Virus record (IMG/VR): IMGVR_UViG_3300024252_000005
Direction: 5' to 3' (one strand)
DNA length: 64,000 nt
Source: a virus
Taxonomy: Duplodnaviria; Caudoviricetes
Position 1 is the stretch's first letter. Each line of letters begins with the position of its first letter. Below are positions 1-36,280 of the stretch, piece after piece. The notes beneath the pieces were generated by a model. That model was not told the DNA's origin. It saw only the letters and a list, made by a program, of their open reading frames with translations, and searched no databases. A program made the translations under genes and the position numbers.

Positions 1-93
1 AAAATTAAGTCTAGGCAGTTCGAGTGATACAATAAAAGAATTTTTAGATGGAGATACTGGGAGTCGAGACAAGATCAAAAAACATTTAAAGCA

Positions 94-1535: not shown

Positions 1536-1765
1536 AAGCTTTCTTCCCCAACTTTAACTAAAGAAAATTTTCGATTAGGAGAAGAAGGTATCCAAAACTT
1601 TTCTTTTTTTTCACAATCGAACAAAATATAATCACTTATAATTACATTATTACTAGTTTCATATGTATCTATTTCTAAAATCATAATAATTTCTTTTCTT
1701 GCTAGCAAAGAATCATAATAAGTAATGTAAACTAAATCGCTTACTTTTAAGTTTTTATCATCCAC
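1532..1765 (-). CDS. hypothetical protein
   Basis: ORF overlapping both neighbours by a few nt. Confidence 0.55.
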   Translation of the reverse strand: MDDKNLKVSDLVYITYYDSLLARKEIIMILEIDTYETSNNVIISDYILFDCEKKEKFWIPSSPNRKFSLVKVGEESF

Positions 1766-2714
1766 TCATTACATCCAAAGCCCAGTCGTAATTTCTTGTT
1801 TCTGTATAGCTATAATGACCGTAACCTCCATTGTGATATTTTGTGCTAGACATAGTAATCTTACCTAGAAATAGAATCAAATCTTCTTTTTTAAGCTTAA
1901 TAATGTCATGAAGCCTTGTTAAGCACAAATTTTCAGGAGTTAAAGTGTTGTAGAAATTTTCTTCATATACTTTGTCCCAATCATTAGTCAATACTTTTAG
2001 ACAAAATGAGCTCAAAATCTTTTGATTTCTTTCAGATTCATATAATCCATCAAGGAATTTTTTCCTTGTAAGATACTTTACAATTCTATTTCCTAACAGA
2101 GGAGAATTGCAATGTTCAAGATTCAAAGCTTTTATTGTATCAAACTTTACAGCTTCTTTGTCATAATGAAGAATGAACTTTTTATTTGAAAAAGTTAATG
2201 CATATTTGCAATTCGTAAAGTCAAAATTATTAAAGCATTCTTTTATGTTTTTGTAAAAGAATTTATTTACAAATTGCAGTTTTATATGCTGAATGTTGTA
2301 TGGTCTAAGGCTTTGAGGGGTATTTATATCTAATCCCTTTTTTTCGGGAAAGTTGATATTATTTGAAAAACAACTATCGTAATTTAACTCAAAGCAATCA
2401 TTGATCGAAACTTTCTTTGCAGCTTGATAAAGTTTACCCCTAGTAAATTTCATATAAGCATTTTTAATATTAGATAAGCTAGAACTGAATATGTCTATGT
2501 CGCCATTGCTGTAAAGATATTCTTCAATATACTTATGATTTTTACTTTGTGATAATTTAAATTCATCAAGTGCTACAATTCTTGCAAATCCCCCAGCAAT
2601 CCAAGCATTATCTTTGACTACCCTAACAAGGTTTGTATGACTAAATAGATCTAATAAGTATAAGTTTAGAGAGTTGCTCAAAGGTCTAGATATAATATTA
2701 TTTTGTATATCCAT
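1758..2714 (-). CDS. Pol-beta superfamily nucleotidyltransferase (polyA polymerase/CCA-adding-like)
   Basis: AWIAGGFAR...GDIDIF (GG..DxD) followed by LQFV and FDFTNCKYAL. Confidence 0.7.
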   Translation of the reverse strand: MDIQNNIISRPLSNSLNLYLLDLFSHTNLVRVVKDNAWIAGGFARIVALDEFKLSQSKNHKYIEEYLYSNGDIDIFSSSLSNIKNAYMKFTRGKLYQAAKKVSINDCFELNYDSCFSNNINFPEKKGLDINTPQSLRPYNIQHIKLQFVNKFFYKNIKECFNNFDFTNCKYALTFSNKKFILHYDKEAVKFDTIKALNLEHCNSPLLGNRIVKYLTRKKFLDGLYESERNQKILSSFCLKVLTNDWDKVYEENFYNTLTPENLCLTRLHDIIKLKKEDLILFLGKITMSSTKYHNGGYGHYSYTETRNYDWALDVMSG

Positions 2715-4288: not shown

Positions 4289-4444
4289 TACCATCAACAG
4301 AGATCAAACCGGTACAGCCATAAATACTCCGAGCGGGATTCGAACCCGCAAGCCATAAGGCGCCTGATTTTAAGTCAGGTTTGTCTACCAATTCCAACAT
4401 CAGAGTTAATAATTTACTGCGTCTGCCTATTCCGTCATGGTGGC
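4289..4444 (-). pseudogene. degenerate tRNA-Leu-type gene split around the intact tRNA-Leu
   Basis: 5' half GCCACCATGACGGAATAGGCAGACGC (4444-4407); 3' half TTATGGCTGTACCGGTTTGATCTCTGTTGATGGTA (4324-4289); acceptor strands GCCACCA/TGATGGT pair at 6 of 7. Confidence 0.65.
4325..4406 (-). tRNA. trnL: tRNA-Leu(UAA)
   Basis: Acceptor ACTCTGA/TCGGAGT, anticodon arm CCTGA-CTTAAAA-TCAGG, long variable arm, GGTTCGAATCC; CCA not encoded. Confidence 0.92.
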
Positions 4445-4814: not shown

Positions 4815-5351
4815 ATGAGAAATAAACCTAATCAAATATCTTGGGATGATGGTAATAGACTATACAGCTTAGAGACTAAAGATATAATACATGTACTTGT
4901 TAGTAATGATGTTCAAGTAAAAAATATCTCTCCAGCTGGTTCATTAAGAAGAAAAAGACATAAAGTTGGAGACTTAGACATTGTAATAGAGGTAGATAAT
5001 CCTAAATTGGCAGGTAAAATACTAGAAGACAAAATGAATTATAATTTTATTGCTAAAAGCTCTTTTTACAAAGGTAAAATTCTTAATACAGGCGTTGACT
5101 TATTTGTTGCAGGCCATCACGATTATTACGCTATGCTATTTTTCTTAACTGGTTGTGAAGATTGGAACTTAAGAATTATGAAATATTTAAAAAACAATAC
5201 TGATATTAGATACACACCATTTCAGTTTATTAATAGTAAAAACAAAAAAGTGTATAAGTTTAACTCAGAAAAAGAAATATTTAAACTAATTAATCATAAT
5301 TATGTATTACCAGTAAATAGAAAACCTAACTACGTAAAATTTGGAGATTAA
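4815..5351 (+). CDS. polX: minimal X-family DNA polymerase (PolX palm + C-terminal domain)
   Basis: AGSLRR..VGDLDIV, GVDLF, LFFLTGC..WN, SEKEIF..YVLPVNR; 178 aa. Confidence 0.85.
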   Translation: MRNKPNQISWDDGNRLYSLETKDIIHVLVSNDVQVKNISPAGSLRRKRHKVGDLDIVIEVDNPKLAGKILEDKMNYNFIAKSSFYKGKILNTGVDLFVAGHHDYYAMLFFLTGCEDWNLRIMKYLKNNTDIRYTPFQFINSKNKKVYKFNSEKEIFKLINHNYVLPVNRKPNYVKFGD

Positions 5352-7541
5352 ATGAAGTTATTAAGAGAACACTATAAAGAGCTGTTAAACGAAGAAATTG
5401 ATTATTCTTCAAAGTTGGCAACAGTATATCATCTTACAGGATTTAAAACTGAACAATATGATTCTGTTTACGCAAAACTTAAAAAGAAAACGCCTAAAGA
5501 CCTTGAAGGTGAGATTGATGCAAAATATAGCTCAAAGCCAAAGTCTAGAGCACAGAGTATTTTATCTAAAACTGAGTACAAAGCAGGACTTAAAAATTTA
5601 AAAAAATACAAAACATCAGCAGGACAAGCTTATCATATAGCAAGAAATATTAGCAATAATTTATTTGATGTAGGAAGTTATTTTCAAGCAGGCGGTGGTG
5701 CAGCATACGGATCAGGTCTTTACACTTGTTATAGATTAAATCCAAAAATAGCGCAGAATTACGGTAACGTTATTTTAAGGTTTGATGTAGACATATCAAA
5801 CTTTTTAATATTCAATGAAGGAATAGCAAGAAAAATACACGGTAATGATCATTATAAGTTAGACGACCAATTTATGCAAATTCTTAAAAGAAAAGGATTT
5901 AATCTTCGCGGACACTACGAATACTCTGATTCTGTAGAAATGTCGGACGACGCTGAAGAGAACTTAGGTGACTATATTGCTTTGCTCGATCAAATGTCTT
6001 CTTCTGATGCTTTTAAGAATAGTGATTTTAATACAGACGTAAGAACAGCAGATATGGCAAATCATGCTTTGTATGAATTTAGCAAGAAATTTAAAAACGG
6101 CAGTGCTTTAAAACTAAGAGATATCATTGATGGTGTTATATTTTATGGTTATAGTGACGGCCCTGTTTGTGTAATATATCACCCAGAATCTCTAGGAACT
6201 TATAAACTTACAGGTGCAGGTTATTTTAAGAATGGTCGGCCTGTAATAGAGTCAGACATAGAAGCTTTAGTAGGTAGAACAGGAAGAGATCTCGCAAATT
6301 CTTTTCAAACTTCACAAGAACTAGATCAAGATGCTCAAGAGCGAGCTGAAGAAAGAAATCAAAGATTTAAAGATGTTCTTACAAATTACGAAATAAACTC
6401 AAAAACTTCAGAAGAAGAGTTTATCAACAATATTCCTTCAGAACTTACTAGCATTATTGAACCCTTAAGACTGGTACTTGAAGATAATATTCCTGAAGAT
6501 ATTATGATAGAAAGGTTAAGCTCAACTACCAACTGGGATAAATTCTTACAAGGCATGGCAGATTCATATCATTACATTCAATGTATTGTTTCTATACTTG
6601 CTGAGCCAATGTTAAAATTTATTGAACATTTTGGCCCAGGTTTGGAAATAATTAGTGAGGACGAGTTTAAAGAATATTTTAAGTTATTTAAACAATATGC
6701 ACAAAATAAAACTTCTAATGCACCAAAGCTTGCAGATTTTGAGTCTAGAGGTTTGAAGTGTGTAGCACAAAACGAAGAGGAGTTTTCTAATCTTGTTGAT
6801 CAACATTTAGGAAGTCTTATTGAGAATTATAATACAATGTTAAGAGATCAGATAGGCGCATATTTTGTTGACTTCGTAGTTGCAGCCATGTTTGACGGTG
6901 AGACCAGTAGCATTAATAATTCTATTGGCAGATGTACTTTGGATACAATTGATATCAATACTGACAATGATAAAAAAGTTATCGAGAAGCACATGTCAGT
7001 TATTAACAACATACTTTCTAACGTACAAAGCAAGTTAATTGAATTTATTACAAAAACAATACCGGAAAATGTACAATCTGATGAAGGCAAAAATGCAGTT
7101 CGAATAGCATTCAGACATGTAGACGCTTTTGATGAAAATGGCAACATTTTTCTTGATGAGATTATTGAAAGATATGGCTGGTATTCTGATTGGTGTCACG
7201 CTGGTACTGAGTTATTTTATACTATACATGAAACTTTTAACGTAGGTTCTTTCGATGCTTTCACTAGTGAATTAAATTCTTACAAAATTGACAGAGAAAA
7301 ATTTGATCCTGAATTCATACTTCATGAAATGTATGAAGTTCCTAATAATAATTTATTAGGTGATGTATCTGGCTTAGTTCTAGTAATGTTTAAAAACGGC
7401 AAGGATGTCTATAAAAGAAACAACATAATGTCAACTGAATATCTATATAAACAAATTCTTGAATCAAAAGCAACTAATGTAGCATATGCTGTTCAAGAAC
7501 AATTTTATGTAGGCTCGCCTGGGGGAAGCATTGATATTTAA
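5352..7541 (+). CDS. large protein with N-terminal ADP-ribosyltransferase-like motifs; probable virion cargo
   Basis: VYH..G and G..YGSGLY motifs typical of H-Y type ART folds; leader-like MKLLREHYKELLNEE. Confidence 0.55.
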   Translation: MKLLREHYKELLNEEIDYSSKLATVYHLTGFKTEQYDSVYAKLKKKTPKDLEGEIDAKYSSKPKSRAQSILSKTEYKAGLKNLKKYKTSAGQAYHIARNISNNLFDVGSYFQAGGGAAYGSGLYTCYRLNPKIAQNYGNVILRFDVDISNFLIFNEGIARKIHGNDHYKLDDQFMQILKRKGFNLRGHYEYSDSVEMSDDAEENLGDYIALLDQMSSSDAFKNSDFNTDVRTADMANHALYEFSKKFKNGSALKLRDIIDGVIFYGYSDGPVCVIYHPESLGTYKLTGAGYFKNGRPVIESDIEALVGRTGRDLANSFQTSQELDQDAQERAEERNQRFKDVLTNYEINSKTSEEEFINNIPSELTSIIEPLRLVLEDNIPEDIMIERLSSTTNWDKFLQGMADSYHYIQCIVSILAEPMLKFIEHFGPGLEIISEDEFKEYFKLFKQYAQNKTSNAPKLADFESRGLKCVAQNEEEFSNLVDQHLGSLIENYNTMLRDQIGAYFVDFVVAAMFDGETSSINNSIGRCTLDTIDINTDNDKKVIEKHMSVINNILSNVQSKLIEFITKTIPENVQSDEGKNAVRIAFRHVDAFDENGNIFLDEIIERYGWYSDWCHAGTELFYTIHETFNVGSFDAFTSELNSYKIDREKFDPEFILHEMYEVPNNNLLGDVSGLVLVMFKNGKDVYKRNNIMSTEYLYKQILESKATNVAYAVQEQFYVGSPGGSIDI

Positions 7542-8003: not shown

Positions 8004-8024
8004 CACACTAGACAGGACTTGAAC
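8004..8024 (-). other. orphan tRNA T-loop/acceptor fragment
   Basis: GTTCAAGTCCTGTCTAGTGTG directly after the split-tRNA 3' half. Confidence 0.45.
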
Positions 8025-8063
8025 ACGCCTATCTGGACTCGAACCAGAACTCTTGGGCTTAAG
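8024..8063 (-). pseudogene. 3' half of split tRNA (partner at 9058-9091)
   Basis: CTTAA-GCCCA-AGAGT-TCTGG-TTCGAGT-CCAGA-TAGGCGT-G; TAGGCGT pairs 7/7 with GCGCTTA at 9091. Confidence 0.75.
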
Positions 8064-8150
8064 CACCTCCTGGAGGATTCGAACCTCGCACTCTCCAATT
8101 CCCCTATATTAATGAGACCGGCTTAGAAGGCCAGTGGGGATGCAGAAGGC
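8064..8150 (-). tRNA. atypical tRNA-Arg(UCU)-like element with rearranged D-arm
   Basis: Acceptor GCCTTCT/AGGAGGT, arm CTGGC-CTTCTAA-GCCGG, GGTTCGAATCC; no canonical D-arm; 23-nt insert after the anticodon arm. Confidence 0.55.
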
Positions 8151-8226
8151 ATATAACAATATTATTATTTTTTTGTTTATTGTTAAATTATTTTTGCATT
8201 AACATTGATCTAAGCATATTTATTAT

Positions 8227-9057
8227 ATGTTCAAGTTGAGGATAAATATGTATTGCAATAAATGTGAAAAAGAGATACCCAAAAAAGAAGCTGGTAATCA
8301 TAAAAGATGGTGTGGAAATAAAAAAACTATTAAAGATTCTTACTGTAAGATATGTAATTCTCCAATAAAAAACACAAGAACAAACTCAGTTAGAAAATAC
8401 TGTGCTAGAGAATGTTTTAACAAAGGAGTATATACTAAAGAGTTTAAACAAAAAATATCTAATAGCAGAAAAAAATATCTTAAGGAAAACCCTAACAGTC
8501 ATCCTTGGTGTAAAGAAAACAAATTTAAGTCTGCGCTAAAGAAGTTTCTTAAGGAAAATAATATAGACTTCATTGAAGAGCACCAGCCTCTGAAAGATAG
8601 ATTTTTCTCTATTGATATTGCCATACCAGAAGTTATGTTTGGAATAGAAGTAAATGGTGAGCAACATTATAATAGGGATAAAACTCTTAAGAAATATTAT
8701 CAAGAAAGACATAATTTAATTAAAGCACAAGGTTGGGTGATATATGAGATTCACTACTCTAAAGTTTATGACGATATTTTTTTATCGAGTTTAATTGAAA
8801 GAATAAGAAAAAATAATTTTAATAACTTTACAATAGACTTTGAGTTACGTAAAAACAAAGTTAAAAGAAGAAAAAATGTAAAGGAAGTCTCTCTAAAGCA
8901 TAAAGAAGAAAAAGCTAAAAAGTTGCTTGAAACAAGATTAGAACATATTAGTAAGGCTGAAAAGAATTGGGGTTGGATTTCCAAAGCTTCTCGAGATCTA
9001 GATATAAGTCATACTCATGTAAGAAGGCTCGTAAACAAGTATCTTTCTGATGCGTAA
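8227..9057 (+). CDS. free-standing homing-type endonuclease, Vsr/DUF559 (EDxHD-like) with Zn-finger, NUMOD3-like and HTH modules
   Basis: CNKC/CKIC/YCAREC, KQKISNSRKKYLKENP, IDIAIP..GIEVNGEQHY..RHNLIKAQGW.I; likely start ATG 8248. Confidence 0.75.
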   Translation: MFKLRINMYCNKCEKEIPKKEAGNHKRWCGNKKTIKDSYCKICNSPIKNTRTNSVRKYCARECFNKGVYTKEFKQKISNSRKKYLKENPNSHPWCKENKFKSALKKFLKENNIDFIEEHQPLKDRFFSIDIAIPEVMFGIEVNGEQHYNRDKTLKKYYQERHNLIKAQGWVIYEIHYSKVYDDIFLSSLIERIRKNNFNNFTIDFELRKNKVKRRKNVKEVSLKHKEEKAKKLLETRLEHISKAEKNWGWISKASRDLDISHTHVRRLVNKYLSDA

Positions 9058-9091
9058 AGGCCCCTGCTTTATCCTATTAAGCTATAAGCGC
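9058..9091 (-). pseudogene. 5' half of split tRNA (ends at U33)
   Basis: GCGCTTA-TA-GCTT-AATAGGATA-AAGC-A-GGGGC-CT; abuts the endonuclease stop codon. Confidence 0.75.
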
Positions 9092-9216: not shown

Positions 9217-9256
9217 ATATAAGACCTTTTTGCTCTAACTACTGGGCTATAGGCCC
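9217..9256 (-). pseudogene. orphan tRNA 5' half (Ile2/Met-like) fused to the CAU tRNA
   Basis: GGGCCTATAGCCCAGTAGTTAGAGCAAAAAGGTCTTATAT immediately before +1 of the intact tRNA. Confidence 0.6.
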
Positions 9257-25811: not shown

Positions 25812-26180
25812 TCAATAATAAAACCTAATCAACTCAATAAACTTCTCCAATAACATATAATCACTCTCTAACTCATACTGATCAGCTAACTCAGGATCAC
25901 ACACAATCTCTACTCCCTCCCTTAACAATATCTCAAATAACTCCTCACACGCCTTCTCATACTCCACTCCCATATCATAACTTATATATATCACCTCATC
26001 ATATACTCCATCACTTACCCCTACCTTGTAACCCTCATGCTGAATCAATACTAAACTACCATCTACTCGCTCAATAGTTCCACAACCACTCGGCGGAGAT
26101 CTATAATCCACAACAAATAATACCCTCCCCTCCAAACATAATCTACTCATAACCAAAACCTTTCTATTCTTATTCAACAA
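25812..26180 (-). CDS. hypothetical acidic protein
   Basis: 122-aa ORF, G/T-rich coding strand. Confidence 0.55.
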   Translation of the reverse strand: MLNKNRKVLVMSRLCLEGRVLFVVDYRSPPSGCGTIERVDGSLVLIQHEGYKVGVSDGVYDEVIYISYDMGVEYEKACEELFEILLREGVEIVCDPELADQYELESDYMLLEKFIELIRFYY

Positions 26181-26421
26181 GTGGCCAAAAAGACGTTCTG
26201 TGGGAACTTCTCAAAAAACATATGTTATACCTTATCTAGTTTATTCTAATTAAACGTAGATTAACGTCGTAACTGTTAACGCAACGCTAGGCTGATGACT
26301 CGGGACAAAGCTGAGCGCTGACTCGGAATATGAATCTCTATTCATTAGACTTTTTTTGACACCGGGTTGCGCAGAAGCTAGATCAATAGCTGTGCTACGT
26401 GCGCAGAATCGGCATAGAGCT

Positions 26422-26700
26422 TTAGATGGGATTATTGGTATTGTATTCGCGGAGAGCTTCGGCGACTTCTAACATTCCCGTCAGTGCTTTTCTGGTTGTG
26501 ATCTCGCGCTGATCAAACTTTCGTTTAGTCGACTGCACACCAGATGTTTGACCTTGTATTACCATGGATCTCATTACTTCGAGAGCAAGCTCTGAATCCT
26601 CTTCCCTGACATGAAGGTGTATTCTTCGGTCGCCGGGTGCGATATCGATGTAGGCTATGGCATACTTTGATTCAGTGTTAATGTTTCGAATTGAGGGCAT
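26422..26700 (-). CDS. hypothetical protein
   Basis: AAGGA SD. Confidence 0.65.
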   Translation of the reverse strand: MPSIRNINTESKYAIAYIDIAPGDRRIHLHVREEDSELALEVMRSMVIQGQTSGVQSTKRKFDQREITTRKALTGMLEVAEALREYNTNNPI

Positions 26701-26728
26701 ATTTTATTTCCTTATAATGCTATAGTTT

Positions 26729-26953
26729 TCAGAGATTATCCATATACTCCGTGACATCCCTTGCAACATCTTCGTATGAATCTGTAACATGGATGCATTT
26801 GCCGTTGTTAAAGTGTATCCAGCAAGTCTCGCCCAGCTTTTCAATAGTATTCTCTTTGCACTGATTGACATGAGAGATAGAGTCGAAGGGGACAAGAACG
26901 TTGATGTTAGAGTTGACTGTATTGTATGTTGTGTATCGTGAAGCGTTTGTCAT
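26729..26953 (-). CDS. hypothetical protein
   Basis: AAAGGATC SD. Confidence 0.65.
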   Translation of the reverse strand: MTNASRYTTYNTVNSNINVLVPFDSISHVNQCKENTIEKLGETCWIHFNNGKCIHVTDSYEDVARDVTEYMDNL

Positions 26954-27036
26954 GATGATGATCCTTTATTTATTTAAGAAAAGCTGCGACTAGATCTATG
27001 CGCAAGTAGATTAAAAGTTGTGTAGCGAACGAAGAG

Positions 27037-27243
27037 TTAGTCTTCGCTATTTTCGTCTAGTTGTTGTTGTAAGAGTAAGACATGGTTCATAATAGAAATG
27101 GCGATCTCTATGTCACCATCGATGAAAGCACTGTTAACTTTACCTTGAAGTGCTTTCATCTTTTTACGGATCTCTTGTTTATTAAAATATTGCTTTTTAA
27201 GTTTTTTGTTATCGCGAGGTTTGTGATTATCGGATTGAGACAT
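27037..27243 (-). CDS. hypothetical basic protein
   Basis: Start MSQSDNH; the track's longer N-terminus is the promoter copy. Confidence 0.6.
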   Translation of the reverse strand: MSQSDNHKPRDNKKLKKQYFNKQEIRKKMKALQGKVNSAFIDGDIEIAISIMNHVLLLQQQLDENSED

Positions 27244-27365
27244 ATCATCCACCTTGTGTGTGTGTTGTTGTTGATATATTATATCAATGATATTATGTAT
27301 TTGCACGTCGGGTTGATGACGCAGAGGGTTGTAGCCTCGAGGCTGCTTTTTCCCTGGGTGAAGAC

Positions 27366-27584
27366 TTAGTTTTGTTTAGGGTACATGAGTAGTTGAGCTT
27401 CGTGAGAAGACATCCAGTGGATATTCATTGCGTCGCCATCGTCGAAGACTTCTTGTCCGCCGCGAATATGAATTGGTTCTTTGAAGTCGATGGTTTGAAC
27501 AGGAGGCATGTTGTGTTTAACTGCGAAGAAAGCGCCAATTGAAAGAGTAAAGGAGATGAGGAGTGCGATTAAGTTACCTTGCAT
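27366..27584 (-). CDS. small protein with N-terminal TM/signal segment
   Basis: LIALLISFTLSIGAFFAV. Confidence 0.6.
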   Translation of the reverse strand: MQGNLIALLISFTLSIGAFFAVKHNMPPVQTIDFKEPIHIRGGQEVFDDGDAMNIHWMSSHEAQLLMYPKQN

Positions 27585-27610
27585 ATGTAGATCTTTCTTT
27601 AGTGTAGTGA

Positions 27611-27925
27611 TTAAATAAATAGTGCAGAAGCGACTAGGTTTAGCCAGGGAGAAGTCTTAGCGTTGTTATTCTTTGCTGGTTCATGTGTAACCTTGCACAC
27701 TTCAGCCCTTTGAATATCCTTGTAATATCTTGCTGTTAGCTCATCCTTGCATTGTAGAGCTTCTTGGGCATCGTTAAAATAGAAGCATCGTGAAGGTTTC
27801 TTCATGTCTGGGTGAAGTAATACATGAACTGCGAAAGTGTACTGTTCAGATGAGCTAAGCCATGAGACTTTGTCACCGTGAGAGTTAATAGCGATATTGT
27901 AGTATGAAGCGTGTTCGTCAAACAT
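27611..27925 (-). CDS. hypothetical protein
   Basis: 104-aa ORF behind class-2 promoter. Confidence 0.65.
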   Translation of the reverse strand: MFDEHASYYNIAINSHGDKVSWLSSSEQYTFAVHVLLHPDMKKPSRCFYFNDAQEALQCKDELTARYYKDIQRAEVCKVTHEPAKNNNAKTSPWLNLVASALFI

Positions 27926-28036
27926 ATTGTTAGCCTTGTAATGTTATTGTAAAAGTTGCGACCAGATCTACGCAAAAGTAGATCAAAAGCTGTTTCTTCT
28001 TATTTAGGATGACACGTTAGCGTTGATATACGCGAG

Positions 28037-28252
28037 TCACTCTGTATCTAGACTGTACCAATCATTGACCAACCAGCCATGCTCATCGCTCAGCGCGTCT
28101 GTAACTTGGAAAAGTGTAACTGTGCTCATGTCTTCGAAGTAATCAGATAGATCAACTTCGAGTGGCACTCCGTTAGCATTAGCAAATTGATCATGCTCTT
28201 CAGGTGTATGATTGGAAGGTAAGTCGAAGTCCCATTGGATTTGAATGATCAT
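28037..28252 (-). CDS. small acidic protein, paralog family D
   Basis: IQWDFDLP..GVPLEVDLSDYFED..QVTDALSDEHGWLVN. Confidence 0.75.
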   Translation of the reverse strand: MIIQIQWDFDLPSNHTPEEHDQFANANGVPLEVDLSDYFEDMSTVTLFQVTDALSDEHGWLVNDWYSLDTE

Positions 28253-28396
28253 GTTGATCCTTGATTGTTTGGGTAGTGGTGATGGTTTATTATAATATGA
28301 TATTAAGTTGGATTACACGTTAGAGCTGTCGACCAATATTTTTACCTAATCTATGCTTGAATAGTTAAAGTAGTGTTAGCTATATGTGTAACGATA

Positions 28397-28708
28397 TCAC
28401 ATGCTCCAATAAGACTCTGATGAAGGTGAGCAGTAAGAAGGTGTATTATACCTTTCCTTATACTCTTCACCTGACATCATGTTCTTTCGAATGACATAAG
28501 TTTCGTAGATATTTGTAACAAAGCGCTCAGCTTCAGGATACTGTGCTTTACATAATTCTTCAACTTCTTTCCTGCTCAATCCTTCATGATCATGAAATTC
28601 AACAAATCTTAATCCAGCCTTGTTCTTTCCCGAGCGAATAGACTTAGACCTAGATGTAATACGATTGTCTTTTTTGTATACTTCAACAGTAAATTGATTA
28701 GTTGTCAT
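28397..28708 (-). CDS. early protein, paralog family B
   Basis: Ends ERYNTPSYCSPSSESYWSM. Confidence 0.75.
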   Translation of the reverse strand: MTTNQFTVEVYKKDNRITSRSKSIRSGKNKAGLRFVEFHDHEGLSRKEVEELCKAQYPEAERFVTNIYETYVIRKNMMSGEEYKERYNTPSYCSPSSESYWSM

Positions 28709-28828
28709 ATTAAAGCTTTCTTGGTTGATTGATTTTTTGATGTTGCCTTATGATATATTATACACAACGAATTAACTAGTTTACACGCACAGAGTGCGAC
28801 GATGCCAGCCGTTGCCAGGCCAAGTCAG

Positions 28829-29239
28829 TTACTTCATGATGAGGGTGTGGCCAGGATTAGTGAATCGGCCGCGATACCCCTTGTAGTTAGCTGAGATACG
28901 ATCGATCATATCCATCCGAGCTTGAGCACAAGGTTCTTTGATAACTTTTTTAGAATTGAATCCCCACTGAGTTGGAATGCTCTTGCGACGATTGATAACG
29001 AACTGATCTTGGACCTTGTAGGTCTTAGACACACCTTCAGGTGGAGGAAAGGAGTTATAGATAGGATTGGTGTATTCTGCGTTGATCTCACGTCGTACGT
29101 AGCCATTAGCATATGAGATGTAAGATACTTTATGTTGTTGGCAGAAGAACTGTTGGTTGCCGCGACGTGCTTGGACTGGTGTTGTGGTCTCGATGAGGTT
29201 TGTGTTTTGAGGCTGAATGGTGTGGATATTGGTGTCCAT
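28829..29239 (-). CDS. early protein, paralog family A
   Basis: NLIETTTPVQ..SYISYANGYVRR. Confidence 0.75.
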   Translation of the reverse strand: MDTNIHTIQPQNTNLIETTTPVQARRGNQQFFCQQHKVSYISYANGYVRREINAEYTNPIYNSFPPPEGVSKTYKVQDQFVINRRKSIPTQWGFNSKKVIKEPCAQARMDMIDRISANYKGYRGRFTNPGHTLIMK

Positions 29240-29318
29240 GATGGTCCTTATTGGATGAGCGGTGTTGATGGTTTATTATAATATACGTGTTATTTAAGTT
29301 GCACGACCTAGTTATAAC

Positions 29319-29585
29319 TTAGCGCTTGATGAGCATATTTTCGTTGTTGAAAAAGTGTGCGTATGTGACAGCAAAAGAATCTACAAACTCTCTCTTTCGA
29401 TTATAGATGCACACATTGTAATCGTTATGCAGTTTCATCGATCGTGTTGTCATGCTCTTGCCTGAGTCAATGTCAGTAACTAAAACCTTGTGACCAGTAG
29501 CGAACGGTGCTTTGGAGCTTAGCCATAGAACGTGAGCCTGTAGAGGTTTAGGTGTGTCAACAATAATAATGTTTTGTGAATCCAT
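29319..29585 (-). CDS. hypothetical early protein
   Basis: Own promoter ~29651 and SD. Confidence 0.7.
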   Translation of the reverse strand: MDSQNIIIVDTPKPLQAHVLWLSSKAPFATGHKVLVTDIDSGKSMTTRSMKLHNDYNVCIYNRKREFVDSFAVTYAHFFNNENMLIKR

Positions 29586-29673
29586 GATGATCCTTATTGG
29601 ATGAGTGGTGGTGATGGTTTATTATAATATGGAAGTTAACTTAGTTACACGACGTGGGTTGGCGAGAGGATTG

Positions 29674-29859
29674 TTATAGATAGATTCCTCTGCTGATTTG
29701 AGACTTAAGCGACTCCTTGCGTTGCGAGATGTCTTCAAGCTTACCGGTCAAACCGTTTTTGTGTAGCTCTTTAGTGTAAGAAGCTGTAGCTTGACGAAGT
29801 AACTCTTTGAGTTCGTTGCGAGTGTGGACGATGATCATTGATTGTTTGTTGGAGTTCAT
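29674..29859 (-). CDS. hypothetical early protein
   Basis: Own promoter ~29922. Confidence 0.65.
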   Translation of the reverse strand: MNSNKQSMIIVHTRNELKELLRQATASYTKELHKNGLTGKLEDISQRKESLKSQISRGIYL

Positions 29860-29911
29860 GTTGAACCTTATTGTTTGGGTGGTGATGGTATATTATAATA
29901 TGATTATTAAC

Positions 29912-30223
29912 TTAGTTGCACGAAGGCTCGTGCCATGCGTAGTTATTGATGAGCCAGCCGAATTCGTCGCTGAGAGCATCAGTGATTTGCTCAGGTGAAA
30001 CACTTCGTGGGTCTTCAAAGTAATCAATGAGATCGACTTGTTGTGGGACACCGAATAACATTGAAACGTCTCGTTTATACCCAGCTAATCGCTCGGGATC
30101 TTCCAGGATGACCTCGATGTCTCCTTCAGATAGACCAAGCATCTCTTGAGTTTGTTCATCCTGTTCGATGTCAAACTCCCAGTCAATGTTAATGATTGTT
30201 GATTGTGTGTTTGGTGTTTCCAT
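29912..30223 (-). CDS. small acidic protein, paralog family D
   Basis: Start METPNTQ; IDWEFD..VDLIDYFEDP..QITDALSDEFGWLIN; stop codon lies inside the next promoter. Confidence 0.75.
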   Translation of the reverse strand: METPNTQSTIINIDWEFDIEQDEQTQEMLGLSEGDIEVILEDPERLAGYKRDVSMLFGVPQQVDLIDYFEDPRSVSPEQITDALSDEFGWLINNYAWHEPSCN

Positions 30224-30334
30224 TATATTAAATCCTTTGTTGGATAAGTAGTGGTGATGGTTTATTATAATATATGTGTTATCTAAGTTACACGAATAGG
30301 GTTGATGACGCCGCTGGTTGAACGGCCAAGACAA

Positions 30335-31141
30335 TTAAAAGATGTCGTCGTTGAGCTCATCGTCGGAGTTATCTTCAAGATCTGGATCTGCAAGACCTTC
30401 GGCTGCTAGAAATGCTTCCCATTCCTCAGGGTTGTCTGATGTTGGAGCTTCGTTTAGTTCTTCAAAAGGATCAGAATCTGTTTCTTTTACGTTAGGTCCA
30501 ATGACAACGTCAGCACGAGTTACAGCGCTTTTTTCCTTAGGCTCAGGCTTAACATCTTCAGGCTTAACATCTTCAGATTCAGCTTTTGCTGAGCTACTGG
30601 ACTCAAGGCCGAGAGCATGAGGGGTTTTATTCATTGGGCGAATTGCCTCATCAAGGACATCAATTGCGATATAGTGAAGTTGCTTAGTATGATCAAGTTT
30701 AGACCCACCAGTTCTGACTTCAAAAGCTGCACAGTTTTTCCCATTTGAGACTCGAGGTGCAGAAAATCTGATCCAAGCAGCACCTTTAGCTTCAGTGTTA
30801 GTTATGTAATCACTGCAATCAATGCCTTGAGATTGAAGTTCAGTTATAGTCAGACTGATCTCTTGAAGAGAAACGAAAACCCATTTAGCACCGGTGCCAG
30901 AAAACTTTGCTTTGACATCGCGTCGCCAAACTGCTTCGCCTTCTCCGGTCTTGCCTGATCTTGTTGTTAGATGCTTGATGTGACTGTCAATCAGTTCGTT
31001 AAGATGCTTCTTGAAGCCAGTTACGGAAGCTTTGTGTCCTTCAGCAATGAAGTTATCAAAAAGACCGCGGATCATTTCGTCGTCGTACTTATTCATTTCA
31101 GTTCCTTGACTGTTTGATTGTGGGAGAGAATTGTTATTCAT
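30335..31141 (-). CDS. family C protein with acidic tail ending NDDIF
   Basis: VTGFKKH..SGK..KFSGTGAKWV..AWIRFS..AAFEVRTGGS; internal EDVKP x2. Confidence 0.8.
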   Translation of the reverse strand: MNNNSLPQSNSQGTEMNKYDDEMIRGLFDNFIAEGHKASVTGFKKHLNELIDSHIKHLTTRSGKTGEGEAVWRRDVKAKFSGTGAKWVFVSLQEISLTITELQSQGIDCSDYITNTEAKGAAWIRFSAPRVSNGKNCAAFEVRTGGSKLDHTKQLHYIAIDVLDEAIRPMNKTPHALGLESSSSAKAESEDVKPEDVKPEPKEKSAVTRADVVIGPNVKETDSDPFEELNEAPTSDNPEEWEAFLAAEGLADPDLEDNSDDELNDDIF

Positions 31142-31224
31142 ATTGAATCCTTATTTATTGTTGGTTTGAAGGTGTGCCTTATGGATGTATTATATGTTAT
31201 GTTGATTGAAACTTACACGCGGTA

Positions 31225-31431
31225 TTAAACCTCATCATCTTTTTTGTTTTCTAGAACTTCATCGATGACACCAGTTTCTTTTAGATGGAACTCAAGAGCT
31301 TGACGTCCTTCCTCTGTGATGCTGATGTATTCTTCTTCGTTGCACATTGCTTCCTGATAGTAATCGAAGATCTTGCAGCCAAGGACAAAGCCTAAAGCTA
31401 GAATGATGATGTAGATTAGAGTGGAAAACAT
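31225..31431 (-). CDS. small single-TM protein
   Basis: N-terminal hydrophobic helix, acidic tail. Confidence 0.65.
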   Translation of the reverse strand: MFSTLIYIIILALGFVLGCKIFDYYQEAMCNEEEYISITEEGRQALEFHLKETGVIDEVLENKKDDEV

Positions 31432-31546
31432 TTGAATCCTTGTTGAGTGTTTGTTTGTTGTTGTCCTTACTTATATATTATATAATAAGGAATAACTTCG
31501 TTACACGAAGTGTCGACGACCTAGGTGGCTAACCCGTCAAGGAAGA

Positions 31547-31960
31547 TTACTGAACGAAGTTTCGTTTGATCTCTTCTTGATTAGCGATGTCAACGAGCTG
31601 TTTGCTGTGCTTAAGTGCAATCTTTCGTGCTCTGAACATAACAGACTTTCCTTGAGCATAGTGACCTAGAACGCGCTCGCATAATGGGTGTCGAAGATCC
31701 TTTTGTGGGTAGCGAACTTCGTTGCGATCGTTCATCCCAAGGAGCCACCGAGCCATGCGAGTCCCAGCTTTAGCGTCAGCAGCTGAGAAGCCGACAGAGT
31801 TCTCATACTTGGTCGTTGAAGTCTTAACTTCATCAGAAGTCTGCAAATTGAAGAGTCGCACGATAGCTCTCATCACCGCGATGTCGTTGTCGTTTAGAAG
31901 TTGATCGATCTCAGATCGTGTCCATATGCGTAGTGTCTTTGTTGATGTCTTGTCAGTCAT
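31547..31960 (-). CDS. hypothetical phage protein
   Basis: Own promoter ~32040. Confidence 0.7.
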   Translation of the reverse strand: MTDKTSTKTLRIWTRSEIDQLLNDNDIAVMRAIVRLFNLQTSDEVKTSTTKYENSVGFSAADAKAGTRMARWLLGMNDRNEVRYPQKDLRHPLCERVLGHYAQGKSVMFRARKIALKHSKQLVDIANQEEIKRNFVQ

Positions 31961-32040
31961 AGTTAATCCTTGATGGAGTGTTGAAATGTTGTTTTGGACC
32001 TTATGTTCTTATTATATATCAATGCAAGTTAAGTTGCACG

Positions 32041-32238
32041 TTATAGGTAACTCTCTGTCTCTGTGATGTATGTGTTGATTGGAGTGAGTTGCTCACCAGT
32101 ATGCAGTGTCATCCACTTATCCTGAACGTGAGTATATCCAGAACTCTTAAGCTCTTTAAGCTTATTAACACGTTGCTCAACGTCGTGGGGAAGATTAATG
32201 TTTTGATCATCTTGATCGTAGTGGACATGAAATACCAT
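32041..32238 (-). CDS. hypothetical early protein
   Basis: Own promoter ~32302; stop abuts the next promoter. Confidence 0.65.
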   Translation of the reverse strand: MVFHVHYDQDDQNINLPHDVEQRVNKLKELKSSGYTHVQDKWMTLHTGEQLTPINTYITETESYL

Positions 32239-32322
32239 GTTAAGTTCCTTTAGTGATATGGATTATGGTTTATTATAATACCTTTATTAACTGAGTTGCA
32301 CGCCAACTCGACGACCCAGAGC

Positions 32323-32847
32323 CTATGCAGGCTGTGTAAGATCCTCGTTGCGTGCCTTAACATCCTCTAGGAAATCAAGGATCTTCTTCTCATGGCCGTC
32401 AATGTGCGAAGTATCGAGACCACCAGAAGCCTGAACATCACGCATCTTGTCGAGGCGAAGCTGAAACCATTGGAATCCGTCAAGCAAGATAGTCTTTGGT
32501 GAAATGTTTACCGGAGTAAACTCTTCGCTCATATCGATGTCTTTGTTGTTCATGTGATCCCATTTGTTGACACCGTGATAGTGACCCAAGATGTCTTCAT
32601 AATCAGTACAATTCGACCAACCTGAGTTCCAGTAAACGTAGCCATGAACTTCTTTCATGAAAGCGTTCGCATCGTTGAATGACTTGCGAAGACCCGGATC
32701 AAGTGACTCGATGAAGTTGTCACGGATATCTCTGAGCTCTTGCGTCTCTCGGAATCGTTCACGTGGTGTCTCAATTGAGCTCCACTTTTCGTTATACGTA
32801 TTGTGGTTATATGTAATTGTATCTCGAACTTGTTGTCTCGTTGGCAT
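32323..32847 (-). CDS. hypothetical protein
   Basis: AAGGA SD, 174 aa. Confidence 0.7.
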   Translation of the reverse strand: MPTRQQVRDTITYNHNTYNEKWSSIETPRERFRETQELRDIRDNFIESLDPGLRKSFNDANAFMKEVHGYVYWNSGWSNCTDYEDILGHYHGVNKWDHMNNKDIDMSEEFTPVNISPKTILLDGFQWFQLRLDKMRDVQASGGLDTSHIDGHEKKILDFLEDVKARNEDLTQPA

Positions 32848-33110
32848 GTCAGTTTCCTTTAGTGAAGTGTTTTACGAATAGGCAGAGCGATAGAGTCATC
32901 GTACGACTTAAGAAGCTTTCGAACTTCTTGACGATCAATACGCGTGAAAAGTCGCAACTCATTACGACCAACTGCTGTATAACCAAGTCGTTTATTTGTA
33001 TGAGATCGCGAACCGAGGCGATGAGAGTGTCGATTAATTGCTGCCAAGTCACTGTCCTTTGTTGATGTTGATTATGGTTTATTATACCACGTCGTTAAAC
33101 GTATTACACG

Positions 33111-33335
33111 TCAAATGATCTTGGTTGTCGGGTTCTGATCGTCCATCACACCATCACAAATCTCTCCTGGGTCGAATTCGTAGAGATGAAAACTCCCGTC
33201 GCTCATAACAACTGTTATTACGTTACCACGCGTCGTCACAGTCTTTACTTCACGAGGATTCACGTTCAATTCGTCACACACTTCTTGAAGGTCGATCTCT
33301 ACTCGAGTTGAGTAAGTTATTTGAATCGTTGACAT
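33111..33335 (-). CDS. hypothetical early protein
   Basis: Own promoter ~33413. Confidence 0.65.
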   Translation of the reverse strand: MSTIQITYSTRVEIDLQEVCDELNVNPREVKTVTTRGNVITVVMSDGSFHLYEFDPGEICDGVMDDQNPTTKII

Positions 33336-33448
33336 AGTTAACCTTTCGAAACGTCGTTAATGATTGGTTGTCCTTACATCTATATTATAGACTAAGGTAT
33401 TGTTATTTGCACGCCGAGCTCGACGCTACAAGCCGTAGCCACTGCGAA

Positions 33449-33868
33449 TCAGTAACCCATGACTTCGTTGTAAGCTTCACACCCACCCATCATACCAGCC
33501 TCCATCGCGATCTCACGTCTCCAGTCTTCCATCCAGTCATCGTCATCACCATCCTCCGTCGCTTCACGAACAAGCTTGATGTCGTCAGTGTCCCAAGGAT
33601 TGAACTTTTGACCATATCTCACACCGCCGTTGAGGAGCTCCATATTCTTTCCCATGGCGTTTTCCTTGTCCTCCCAGTCTTCGCCTTCGTAAACCCAGAT
33701 CGCGTCACCATCACCACACCTCGCAAGACTCACCAACTCTTCGAGAGTATACTCTCTGCCCACCTCGAGAATAACCGTGTCACACCAGTCGTCGTTGTGA
33801 ATTGGGTCGACGTTGCTCCCAGTAGTCATTAAACATTTGATGATTCCCATAGTAAAACCTTTCGTCAC
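33449..33868 (-). CDS. hypothetical acidic early protein
   Basis: Own promoter ~33929. Confidence 0.7.
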   Translation of the reverse strand: MTKGFTMGIIKCLMTTGSNVDPIHNDDWCDTVILEVGREYTLEELVSLARCGDGDAIWVYEGEDWEDKENAMGKNMELLNGGVRYGQKFNPWDTDDIKLVREATEDGDDDDWMEDWRREIAMEAGMMGGCEAYNEVMGY

Positions 33869-34021
33869 GTTGTTAATGTTTGTTTGTCCTTACATCTATA
33901 TTATAGACTAAGGAATTGATTGTTACACGTCGTTTCGACGACGTGGAGCCTTGTCACGGCGAATCAGATCTTTGTAAGATCGATCCTATCGAAGCGAGGC
34001 CAAACGACCTAGGTCTTTGAA

Positions 34022-34801
34022 TCAGAAGATGTCATCGTTGAGGTCGTCGTCGTAGTCATCCTCGAACTCGTCGTTACTGAGGCCTTGTGATGAGAGGTAA
34101 GCTTCCCAAGCTTCAGGATCATCAGAGTCAGGGACATCACTCGGAGTCTCGTCGTCTGGTGTCTCCACCTCGTCAACGACTTCAGTTGTCTCGGTCTCCT
34201 CAGCTTCAGGCTCTTTGGCTTCGCTCGGTGAGGCAATGACCTCGAGCTTCTCTGAGTGGGGAGTTCCTCCTAATGGAGAGATCACATCGTCAAGTCCAAC
34301 AGCAGGTAAGATAAGCAACTGCCTTTGATGATCATCTTTGGATCCACTTGTTCGAACTTCGAAGGCTGCCATATGAGCCTTGCTTTTAGGGTCGACGCGA
34401 GGTCCTGAGTAGCGAACCCATGCGTAGCCAGCTTGCGTCGTCCATGCCTTGTAGGCTGAGCAATCGATGCCATCCTCCTCGAACTCGTCAAGACTTGGGT
34501 TAACGACGTCAAGGGCAACTTGAACCCACTTCGCTCCGCGACCAGCAAACATTGCCTTCTGCTCACGACGCCAATCGGAGCCAGATCCATTGGCAGTCTT
34601 GCCAGATCCTGAGCAAAGGTGCTTGATGTCAGTCTTGATGAGACCATCAATATGCTTCTTGAAAGCAGTTACCTTAGGATCGCCTCCAGCTGCAATAAAC
34701 TGCTCGAACAAAGCTTTAATATGATTAACTTCTGTCATTGTATCCTCAATTGTTGGGTTTGATGTTGGGATGTTTTGGGTAGATTGAGTATCAGTTGTCA
34801 A
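34022..34801 (-). CDS. family C protein with acidic tail ending NDDIF
   Basis: GGDPKVTAFKKH..GAKWV..AWVRYSG..AAFEVRTSGS; TTG start with AGGAG. Confidence 0.8.
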   Translation of the reverse strand: MTTDTQSTQNIPTSNPTIEDTMTEVNHIKALFEQFIAAGGDPKVTAFKKHIDGLIKTDIKHLCSGSGKTANGSGSDWRREQKAMFAGRGAKWVQVALDVVNPSLDEFEEDGIDCSAYKAWTTQAGYAWVRYSGPRVDPKSKAHMAAFEVRTSGSKDDHQRQLLILPAVGLDDVISPLGGTPHSEKLEVIASPSEAKEPEAEETETTEVVDEVETPDDETPSDVPDSDDPEAWEAYLSSQGLSNDEFEDDYDDDLNDDIF

Positions 34802-35195
34802 AATGACTCCTAAATGGTTGGGGTGATGTTTTATTATAATAGGATTAGATTAATGTTACACGATAGATGATGGACCTGTTGTTTCCTTAATAATTAACTT
34901 TGATTCATATTTAACTCCTTTCCTCTAGTACTTTTTATTATACCATCTGTCTCAATTAGTTACACGATCCAACTCGACGACCCGAAGGGCTGTCAACGCA
35001 AGTTCTCGAGATCAATGATGATCGATGCAGCTAAGAAGAGAATAATCAAGGTAAGCATATGATGCCTTTCAACTTAAGGCTCTAACATGAGGACGAAGGC
35101 CTCGTTTTTGCCTGACCTGTTATTATATAACCTTCAGGCGATAGTTACACGATTAATACGCCGGACGCCAGAGTTCTCACATCATCACCAAGAAA

Positions 35196-35500
35196 CGTGT
35201 AACTTGGTAATTCAACTGACCGGGAAACCAACGATGTCAAAGATCTGAAGGGAAGAGGCATGCCTCTTTTGGAACCACCGTTCCTATCCCCCCTTATGTT
35301 CTTATTATAATATGCCACGTCGCCGGTTACACGTAGGCCCCGGGGCTCTAGAGGGCCCCTTTTAGGCCCCCTCTGCGTGTATCTAAAACTCAGTGGGACT
35401 CCGGCCCAGGGGGGGTTTAGTCCGCTACCAGCATTTTCTTCCCGGGAACTTTTCGAAAAGCTTTTAGGTATCACATTTGAATACATCTAATTTGTGAAAA
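35196..35500. other. GC-rich palindrome cluster at the divergent transcription junction
   Basis: AAGAGGCATGCCTCTT (35253-35268), CCCCGGGG, CTCTAGAG, TTCCCGGGAA (35439-35448), CTTTTCGAAAAG (35449-35460); inverted promoter half-site at 35196. Confidence 0.7.
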
Positions 35501-35584
35501 AAACTCCAGGAGACTTTTTTAATAACTTTTTGATATTTAGAGATATATTTATATTTAGTTATATTAATAGAAAGAGTTTTAAAT

Positions 35585-36280
35585 ATGAGAATAACTGAGA
35601 GTAAATTACGAAGTTTGATAAGGAGTGTGATTAAAGAAACATTTGATCACGTAGGAAAATTTGCCGCAATGTATATGATGCCTAAAAGAGGAATATCATC
35701 AAGAGATATTAAAAACTTATGTCCTTCTAGAGAATGTGAATTTATATCTGTTGGAAATGTTGACAGTTATGATAGTTATAGACCTTTTGAAGATGATCAT
35801 GGTTTTTTCATAGATGCTTTTGAAAATTGTGTTAATCAAATTGACATAGGCGAAGGAAACGAAGAAGCTGAACGTGTTGTTAGTAGTTCTGGTTTTGTTA
35901 GTAGTATTATGCCTTTAAAAGTTTTTTATGATTCTAATGATGGTGGTCGTTTAGTATACTGTACAAAAGGTACCTTTAATACATCAGAGGGTGAAGGAAA
36001 TGTTTGGTTTAGTTTACCTATAGATACGCAAAAGTTTGAAAGAAGATGTAATAATGAGTTTGGTCAAATCAATTCATCAGGAGTTGAATATGAATCAATG
36101 ATTCATTCTAGAGAAAGAGAAGAGCAGGCAAAAAGAAGAGATAGATTAGATCGAGAATTTGGTCGAGGAGTCTATGCTAATCCTTACTCAGGAGAGACAG
36201 AAGCAGAAACTAGAGCAAGACTTCGAAGAGATGATACTGAGCGTGATCATCTAAGAAAAATTAGAAAAGAAATGCTTTAG
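35585..36280 (+). CDS. leader-family protein (putative internal virion protein)
   Basis: MRITESKLRSLIRSVIKE. Confidence 0.75.
   Translation: MRITESKLRSLIRSVIKETFDHVGKFAAMYMMPKRGISSRDIKNLCPSRECEFISVGNVDSYDSYRPFEDDHGFFIDAFENCVNQIDIGEGNEEAERVVSSSGFVSSIMPLKVFYDSNDGGRLVYCTKGTFNTSEGEGNVWFSLPIDTQKFERRCNNEFGQINSSGVEYESMIHSREREEQAKRRDRLDREFGRGVYANPYSGETEAETRARLRRDDTERDHLRKIRKEML

Follow-up and report, generated by a model that had tools for sequence, protein, structure and literature searches.

Few features in biology are as conserved as the connectivity of the tRNA cloverleaf, and the exceptions known to us have either lost arms or changed the length of their stems. The RNA described here, an 87-nt tRNA-Arg(UCU)-like molecule encoded by a metagenomic phage, shares individual traits with several described systems. 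Its 12-bp 8/4 branch is also seen in allo-tRNAs and tRNA-Sec-like molecules (8/4 or 9/3; Mukai et al. 2017, PMC5389517; PMC7609411), and allo-tRNAs, like this RNA, come from metagenomic data only and are missed by standard expectations. However, allo-tRNAs keep a D hairpin with a long stem and a small loop, together with a long helical variable arm (Ser identity), and the 87-nt RNA has neither; in 5 of 8 variants, the outer pair of the only candidate variable-arm helix (TCTC/GAGA) is a C:A mismatch, and the consensus fold lacks this helix. D-armless mitochondrial tRNAs such as metazoan tRNA-Ser(AGY/N) (PMC4013460) also do without a D hairpin and form a three-way junction, but they have lost the D-stem and G18-G19, whereas our RNA keeps both D-strands and G18-G19-A20 in a new place. 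Segment order is likewise non-canonical in the permuted tRNA genes of Cyanidioschyzon merolae and other organisms (PMC3978253), where the whole gene is permuted, with the 3' half before the 5' half, and a circular intermediate leads to a normal mature tRNA. By contrast, the 87-nt unit carries its acceptor strands at both ends; since these ends are terminal and the permutation is internal, the mature RNA must still be permuted.

Endonucleases of the SegB type make their cuts within tRNA genes, where they drive the amplification of segments in tandem (PMC13096335). As at our locus, SegB of T4/T6 is found among phage tRNA genes, with breaks inside tRNA genes and rearranged or duplicated segments nearby, but it is a GIY-YIG enzyme encoded between genes, whereas the enzyme described here is Vsr-like/PD-(D/E)XK and belongs to a cassette located inside an anticodon, together with an RNA of the same anticodon. 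The Vsr-like (EDxHD) enzymes of marine-phage "fractured genes" (PMC2677866; I-Bth0305I, PMC3239194) are of the same nuclease class, with modular DNA-binding add-ons, and there too a marine phage gene is broken by a free-standing endonuclease gene (PMC2677866). The fractured protein genes are mended by split inteins, whereas the broken tRNA gene of our phage is left unmended, an oddly built second gene being provided instead. Searches of the openly accessible literature returned no tRNA with re-ordered core strands and no endonuclease cassette bearing a substitute tRNA, and the permuted form is absent from a review of non-canonical tRNAs (PMC7609411). The strand-swapped shape has probably not been described before.

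The locus lies in a 64,000-nt stretch of AT-rich DNA (about 30% G+C; IMG/VR record IMGVR_UViG_3300024252_000005), hereafter the window, i.e. the whole stretch that was analysed. Its features, with related contigs and records designated by L and G numbers, are as follows:

8064–8150, minus strand (read from 8150 to 8064): strand-swapped tRNA-Arg(UCU)-like RNA of 87 nt, from base-by-base reading and the consensus structure
8150–8143 with 8072–8065, minus strand: acceptor of this RNA, 8 bp
Between the acceptor strand and the D-like helix, minus strand: linker CA
8141–8135, minus strand: ATCCCCA, the sole D-strand ahead of the anticodon arm
8140–8136 with 8104–8100, minus strand: D-like helix, with the anticodon arm enclosed within it
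8134–8130 with 8122–8118, minus strand: anticodon stem, 5 bp (arm 8134–8118)
8129–8123, minus strand: anticodon loop CTTCTAA, with the anticodon TCT at 8127–8125
8117–8105, minus strand: unpaired bulge of 13 nt
8106–8095, minus strand: TAGGGGAATTGG, complement of the ATCCCCA strand, 3' of the anticodon arm
8099–8088, minus strand: connector AUUGGAGAGUGC, containing G18-G19-A20-like residues
8087–8084 with 8076–8073, minus strand: T stem, 4 bp
8083–8077, minus strand: T loop TTCGAAT
8064, minus strand: discriminator G
8159–8186, minus strand: promoter-like TTAACA-16-TAATAT, ending 8 nt before the first base of the 87-nt RNA
8248–9057, plus strand: Vsr-like/PD-(D/E)XK putative homing endonuclease of 269 aa, divergent from the 87-nt RNA
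9057–9091, minus strand: 5' part of a canonical tRNA-Arg(UCU), positions 1–34, matching the intact gene of L025/L026 and the joined DNA form
8024–8063, minus strand: 3' part of the canonical tRNA-Arg(UCU), beginning directly after the discriminator of the 87-nt RNA
8004–8023, minus strand: orphan T-loop and acceptor 3' fragment, Thr-like (compare the tRNA-Thr 3' end in L009)

Read in its own direction, the 87-nt RNA consists of an acceptor strand (7–8 nt), a short linker, TCCCC, A, the anticodon arm, and a 13-nt unpaired stretch, followed by GGGGA, ATTGGA, GAGTG plus one pyrimidine, the T arm, the acceptor 3' strand, and the discriminator. Judged by its sequence, it is an internal circular permutation of tRNA nucleotides 8–43 (standard numbering). 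Specifically, block 21–43 (the 3' D-strand, position 26, and the anticodon arm) comes ahead of block 8–20 (U8, A9, the 5' D-strand, and the D-loop to A20), and an 11-nt linker joins the two. The 5' strand of the D-like helix runs on through position 26 into the anticodon stem, like in an ordinary tRNA. Canonical bacterial and phage tRNA-Arg(UCU) (L025, L026) share with it the loop CUUCUAA, the Arg-type GG-A20 motif, the T loop, G/A73, the lack of an encoded CCA, and the place in a phage tRNA array, and differ from it in the order of the two blocks, in having no such linker, and in the 7/5 rather than 8/4 branch. Compared with the phage's own canonical gene, the sequence is unlike, save for the anticodon loop region and universal tRNA motifs.

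The preliminary description of this DNA had placed only the ATCCCCA strand before the anticodon arm and its complement after it, and both positions hold; the supposed 23-nt insert does not, as 29 nt separate the anticodon stem from the T stem. It had also called the acceptor, anticodon, and T arms normal. All three are present, but the T stem has only 4 Watson-Crick pairs, with C:C or U:C at 49:65, and an eighth acceptor pair (G8143-C8072) offsets the short stem, producing the 8/4 stack. This pair, G8-C79 in the alignment, forms in 8/8 variants. The first pair of the RNA, G1:U72, is unusual.

Gene finders pass over the RNA: the Rfam tRNA model (RF00005) leaves it unmatched even at E ≤ 10, and ARAGORN makes no call there in standard, intron, or relaxed modes. 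A different 64-nt reading returned by the mitochondrial mode of ARAGORN was unsupported and was rejected. Both ARAGORN and the Rfam model recognise three conventional tRNAs encoded on that strand (Leu-UAA, Thr-UGU, and Met-CAU), and none of the phage tRNAs encodes CCA. The D hairpin that lies between acceptor and anticodon stems in a four-arm cloverleaf is missing from the 87-nt RNA, the D-strands of which flank the anticodon arm. Other tRNA hallmarks are found in all 8 variants, i.e. a 7-nt anticodon loop, U33, a purine at 37, a T loop of the form UUCRANY closed by G53-C61, and a 12-bp stack (8+4). The covariance model R1 scores 115 bits at the RNA and finds no second match within the window. 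Folding had been proposed as a check, and its outcome is mixed: the MFE fold of the window RNA does contain the acceptor helix and a TCCCC/GGGGA helix wrapping the anticodon stem, but shuffled sequences fold equally well (z = -0.85). As such, the window sequence alone does not exclude chance, and the comparative data decide.

The same arrangement, which the preliminary description had suggested looking for in other phages, was found in contigs of endonuclease homologues and by pattern scans, giving 8 distinct full-length variants from marine and other metagenomic phage contigs (the window, L006, L009, L015, L016, L019, L020, and L021). The 22 proposed pairs hold in every variant, with standard pairs in 176 of 176 pair cells, and the 87-nt alignment contains no indels. 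Both sides have changed in 4 pairs (acceptor 4-83 and 6-81, swapped D-stem 15-47, and anticodon stem 17-33), 3 further pairs show wobble-preserving single changes, and pairing is kept at all 13 variable stem columns. None of 500 shuffles did as well, and controls with a slid register were 37–63% paired. RNAalifold predicts the same structure de novo from the variants. Support for the swapped D-stem amounts to one compensatory event, a change from C-G to U-A in the TCCCC/GGGGA helix of L009, and this event and the de novo fold together bear out the pairing and the permuted topology that had been proposed from the window sequence. Invariant parts include the loop CUUCUAA (U33, A37), the T loop UUCGAAU (G53-C61), the GAGG/CCTC T stem, the connector, and an A14-A15-Y16-U17-G18-G19-A20-like motif; the discriminator is G or A (A in L015 and L021).

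Identity to the window is 83–97% for the RNA, compared with 65–82% for the adjacent endonuclease gene, 58–87% for the spacer between the two, and 62–80% for the canonical tRNA-Thr and tRNA-Met of these phages. The RNA is thus slower-evolving than DNA of shared history, which argues for selection on it. The eight variants are nevertheless closely related (83–97%), and horizontal spread with the cassette inflates their apparent conservation. A ninth, more diverged copy is found at positions 1–22 (minus strand) of L051. It starts GCCCTTTGCACCCTCACCAGCC and differs in the D-like 5' strand and in the anticodon stem; the contig ends after 22 nt, leaving the partner strands unreadable, and the neighbouring endonuclease is 53% identical to that of the window.

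The 87 nt are found unchanged in separate assemblies from at least three samples, i.e. L001 (ENA ERZ27250246) and L004/L005 (Logan SRR7618074 and SRR7620419), one of which may be the window's own source, and a further seawater run holds a one-base variant. The RNA is not a misassembly, nor, given these copies and the variants in other phages, is it unique to this assembly, as had been considered at the outset. Exact and degenerate pattern scans recovered it from IMG/VR in L015 and L016 only and from five metagenome contigs, while the pattern scan of 185,579 prokaryote genomes returned none, and a search of INPHARED phages with the 2.4 kb around the RNA gave no match. The anticodon and T arms resemble those of ordinary bacterial tRNA-Arg(UCU) genes. 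A search for a canonical ancestor sharing both of these arms found none in IMG/VR and, in genomes, only generic bacterial tRNA-Arg(UCU) genes. No relatives of a 729-aa neighbour protein were found in IMG/VR.

Within tRNA arrays the RNA always lies at the end or inside, in the orientation of the tRNAs. It occurs without the endonuclease in L015/L017 and in L020, and L021 carries a stand-alone copy behind a DNA methyltransferase-like ORF, with unrelated flanks, no tRNA halves, and its own promoter-like site (TTGACA-17-TAACTT); relatives of the ORF beside this copy (L030–L039) lack the RNA. Conversely, endonuclease homologues with 41–53% identity are found in tRNA arrays of L027 and L028 that lack the RNA. 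Because the two occur apart, the RNA is a gene of its own rather than a structural component of an intron or of the endonuclease element. Both hexamers of the promoter-like site in the window recur at equal spacing in 5 more variants, with TAGTAT in one, and L009 and L021 have other promoter-like sites at the equivalent place; in this AT-rich stretch, the 9 sites found are barely above the 7.5 expected by chance. The RNA run X20 yielded a single 151-nt contig, which lies inside the endonuclease gene and is uninformative on the expression of the RNA.

Beyond what the preliminary description covered, the RNA belongs to a homing-endonuclease cassette in a canonical tRNA-Arg(UCU) gene, and the two tRNA 3' fragments downstream of it belong to this context. 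The cassette of the window, made up of the endonuclease and the 87-nt RNA, is 995 nt long and lies inside the anticodon. The 5' part of the canonical gene (9091–9057) has the wobble U as its last base and is flush with the stop codon of the endonuclease, and the 3' part (8024–8063) holds the rest of the anticodon loop, the 3' anticodon strand, the variable loop, the T arm, the acceptor 3' strand, and the discriminator. The Thr-like fragment at 8004–8023 looks like a remnant of an earlier rearrangement, and relatives have a different orphan fragment in its place. The endonuclease ORF, which an upstream ATG at 8227 would extend to 276 aa, combines a zinc-finger-like CxxC region at its N-terminus with an HTH-like tail at its C-terminus, shows weak Pfam matches to MTES_1575 and RAP, and is labelled a "very-short-patch-repair endonuclease" in the source; a PDB sequence search with it gave no meaningful match. 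Its many homologues carry NUMOD3, HTH, or RAP modules and are found in tRNA arrays, including those at 41–55% identity.

Contigs from four runs were compared at the cassette region. In one contig of DNA run X3, 9057 is followed by one other base and then by 8061, the 995 nt being absent; this joined form has a depth of 15.9, the filled form one of 6.5. With its loop CTTCTAA, the joined gene is a canonical tRNA-Arg(UCU). A reading of the split tRNA as Lys was rejected, the intact allele being Arg(UCU). The uninterrupted allele is thus present as DNA in seawater samples that also hold the cassette, and ARAGORN calls an uninterrupted tRNA-Arg(UCU) in two IMG/VR phages (L025, 1570–1644; L026, 5199–5272). 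L025 is syntenic with L020, with shared flanks, and the two differ at exactly the cassette point: L025 has tRNA-Lys and then the canonical tRNA-Arg, whereas L020 has tRNA-Lys, a spacer, the 87-nt RNA, and, of the canonical gene, the 3' part alone. There is thus presence/absence polymorphism at one precise site with a nuclease ORF within the insert, as in a homing cassette, with cleavage being putative. At least three or four different tRNA bodies carry the cassette, in every case in the anticodon loop (the window, L006, L009, and the mosaic L016). In L016, a 211-kb relative, the acceptor strand of the 5' piece before the endonuclease stop (6521–6556) is unpairable with the 3' part behind the RNA, so the two flanks derive from different tRNA genes.

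Searches of whole records reveal an either/or pattern. The 87-nt RNA is present and the canonical tRNA-Arg absent in G001 (211 kb, 84% complete) and G002, the reverse is true of G003 and G004, and none of the searched records has both. Insertion of the cassette into the canonical gene produces this pattern automatically, and it is therefore not independent proof of replacement. Run X3 also shows alternative continuations at 8025 and 9096 (a tRNA-Lys 3' end and other fragments), and several arrangements of the tRNA array thus co-exist within one sample. Logan contigs from two runs both break within the T arm that belongs to the 3' part of the split tRNA-Arg (8032–8054), with a 23-nt overlap.

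In E. coli, the tRNA-Arg identity set for ArgRS consists of A20, C35, U/G36, and A/G73. All 8 variants carry the corresponding elements, i.e. an A after GG (column 57), C35, U36, and G/A at column 87, the spatial placement of which within the permuted fold we infer. AGA makes up 65% of Arg codons in the ORFs of the window (25 per 1000 codons). Given a probability of roughly one half (0.52), our main reading is that the RNA works as a tRNA-Arg(UCU) of non-canonical structure, which would decode AGA. Among the options first offered (a functional odd tRNA, a decoy for anticodon nucleases or synthetases, and a recombination scar), this one is now the best supported. A fuller version is more tentative, and we would give it somewhat less than even odds: a topologically permuted tRNA, charged with Arg and reading AGA, would form part of a self-compensating Vsr-like homing cassette and replace the tRNA-Arg(UCU) that is destroyed. 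An RNA that is tRNA-like and functional without decoding, acting as a decoy for host anticodon nucleases or other tRNA-targeting defences, as a titrator of ArgRS or modification enzymes, or as a processing or termination module of the array transcript, seems less likely to us, although it accounts for the constraint just as well and several observations are compatible with it. Structure-preserving evolution constrains the fold and says nothing on decoding, a decoy would need the intact anticodon loop too, and the fold departs from every tRNA model; in T6, moreover, phage tRNA arrays and homing endonucleases have been linked to defence evasion (PMC13096335). However, an invariant ArgRS set, a 12-bp stack, the T loop, and a G18-G19-like motif are more than a nuclease decoy should need, and the anticodon is that of the very gene destroyed by the cassette, in an RNA that outlasts loss of the endonuclease.

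The neighbourhood is rich in tRNA fragments and mosaics (8024–8063, 8004–8023, the mixed pieces of L016, and the truncated 5' piece of L006), endonucleases have been shown to drive the amplification of segments within tRNA genes (PMC13096335), and the variants are all at least 83% identical. These data would fit a non-functional tRNA pseudogene, i.e. a break-repair scar that only seems conserved through hitch-hiking with a recently spreading cassette. This reading is already disfavoured, and we regard it as improbable: a scar should not keep 13 variable stem columns paired with 4 double changes (0/500 shuffles), nor 87 nt without indels while the spacer and the endonuclease gene diverge faster, and the RNA persists without the endonuclease in three contexts, with L021 sharing no flank. 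Insertion at 34/35 also brings introns to mind, this being the position of the classic tRNA-Leu(UAA) group I introns. Were the 995-nt insert a group I-like self-splicing intron with the RNA as its 3' domain, splicing would restore the canonical tRNA; the final bases, U in the 5' exon and G in the insert (8064), are as such an intron would have them, and group I introns are known to carry PD-(D/E)XK and Vsr-like endonucleases (PMC2677866; PMC3239194). Nonetheless, we consider this hardly tenable. No P3–P9 ribozyme core was detected, with no intron-family match at E ≤ 10 on either strand, and about 830 nt of the insert lie antisense to the ORF. The exons are also faulty, with part of the 5' exon missing in L006, exon pieces of two different tRNAs in L016, no 5' exon in L015 and L020, and no exon at all in L021, and yet the RNA is conserved. 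Finally, its last base is A in L015 and L021, against the terminal G of an intron.

If the RNA is a working tRNA, its D-stem would still form and stack on the anticodon stem, closing around the anticodon arm rather than a D-loop. The G18-G19-A20 stretch would lead directly into a variable-loop-like GAGUG and then the T arm, and the acceptor/T stack would stay at 12 bp through the shift from 7/5 to 8/4. Based on tRNA geometry, the D/anticodon arm could remain coaxial, the acceptor/T arm could keep its 12 bp, and the elbow between G18-G19 and the T loop could survive, and an L-shape with the usual elbow contacts is plausible. The permutation probably arose by tandem duplication and collapse during repair of endonuclease-induced breaks in a tRNA array; for example, duplicating 8–43 and then losing the outer copies would yield exactly the permutation observed. 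The resulting tRNA may substitute for the canonical gene destroyed by the cassette, and we infer that it is because of this replacement that the RNA is kept after loss of the endonuclease. A working tRNA of this kind would imply that the translation machinery requires the L-shape and not the chain path, would offer a naturally divergent scaffold usable for tRNA engineering, and would mean that current tools under-count phage tRNA sets. A cassette that breaks a tRNA gene while carrying a substitute with the same anticodon would also be a novel means by which a selfish element makes up for the damage that it causes.

Other parts of the window also hold tRNA fragments. The intact tRNA-Leu(UAA) (4406–4325, minus strand) stands between two pieces that read as degenerate tRNA parts (4289–4444), a Leu-type 5' piece upstream and, downstream, a variable/T/acceptor piece. 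The outer acceptor strands pair at 6 of 7 positions, i.e. a tRNA is nested in a dead tRNA, and a Cys-rich small ORF (4600–4427) extends into the outer 5' piece. At 9217–9256 (minus strand), a tRNA 5' fragment (acceptor, D-arm, and part of the anticodon stem) directly adjoins the first base of the intact tRNA-Met/Ile2(CAU) at 9217. A 178-aa ORF between tRNAs (4815–5351, plus strand) has a weak match to the DNA polymerase beta palm/thumb, below the cut-off (E about 1e-3), and may be a small nucleotidyltransferase. The region 26000–36000 has few ORFs of at least 150 aa (table 11), with none between 25129 and 30334, and a G+C content of 40–44% vs about 30% elsewhere. Lastly, a 318-aa ORF at 1758–2714 (minus strand), a few kb from the tRNA array, matches Pfam Gad2 (PF26128) in the gene tables of L001, L002, and L006 and is a candidate anti-defence gene.
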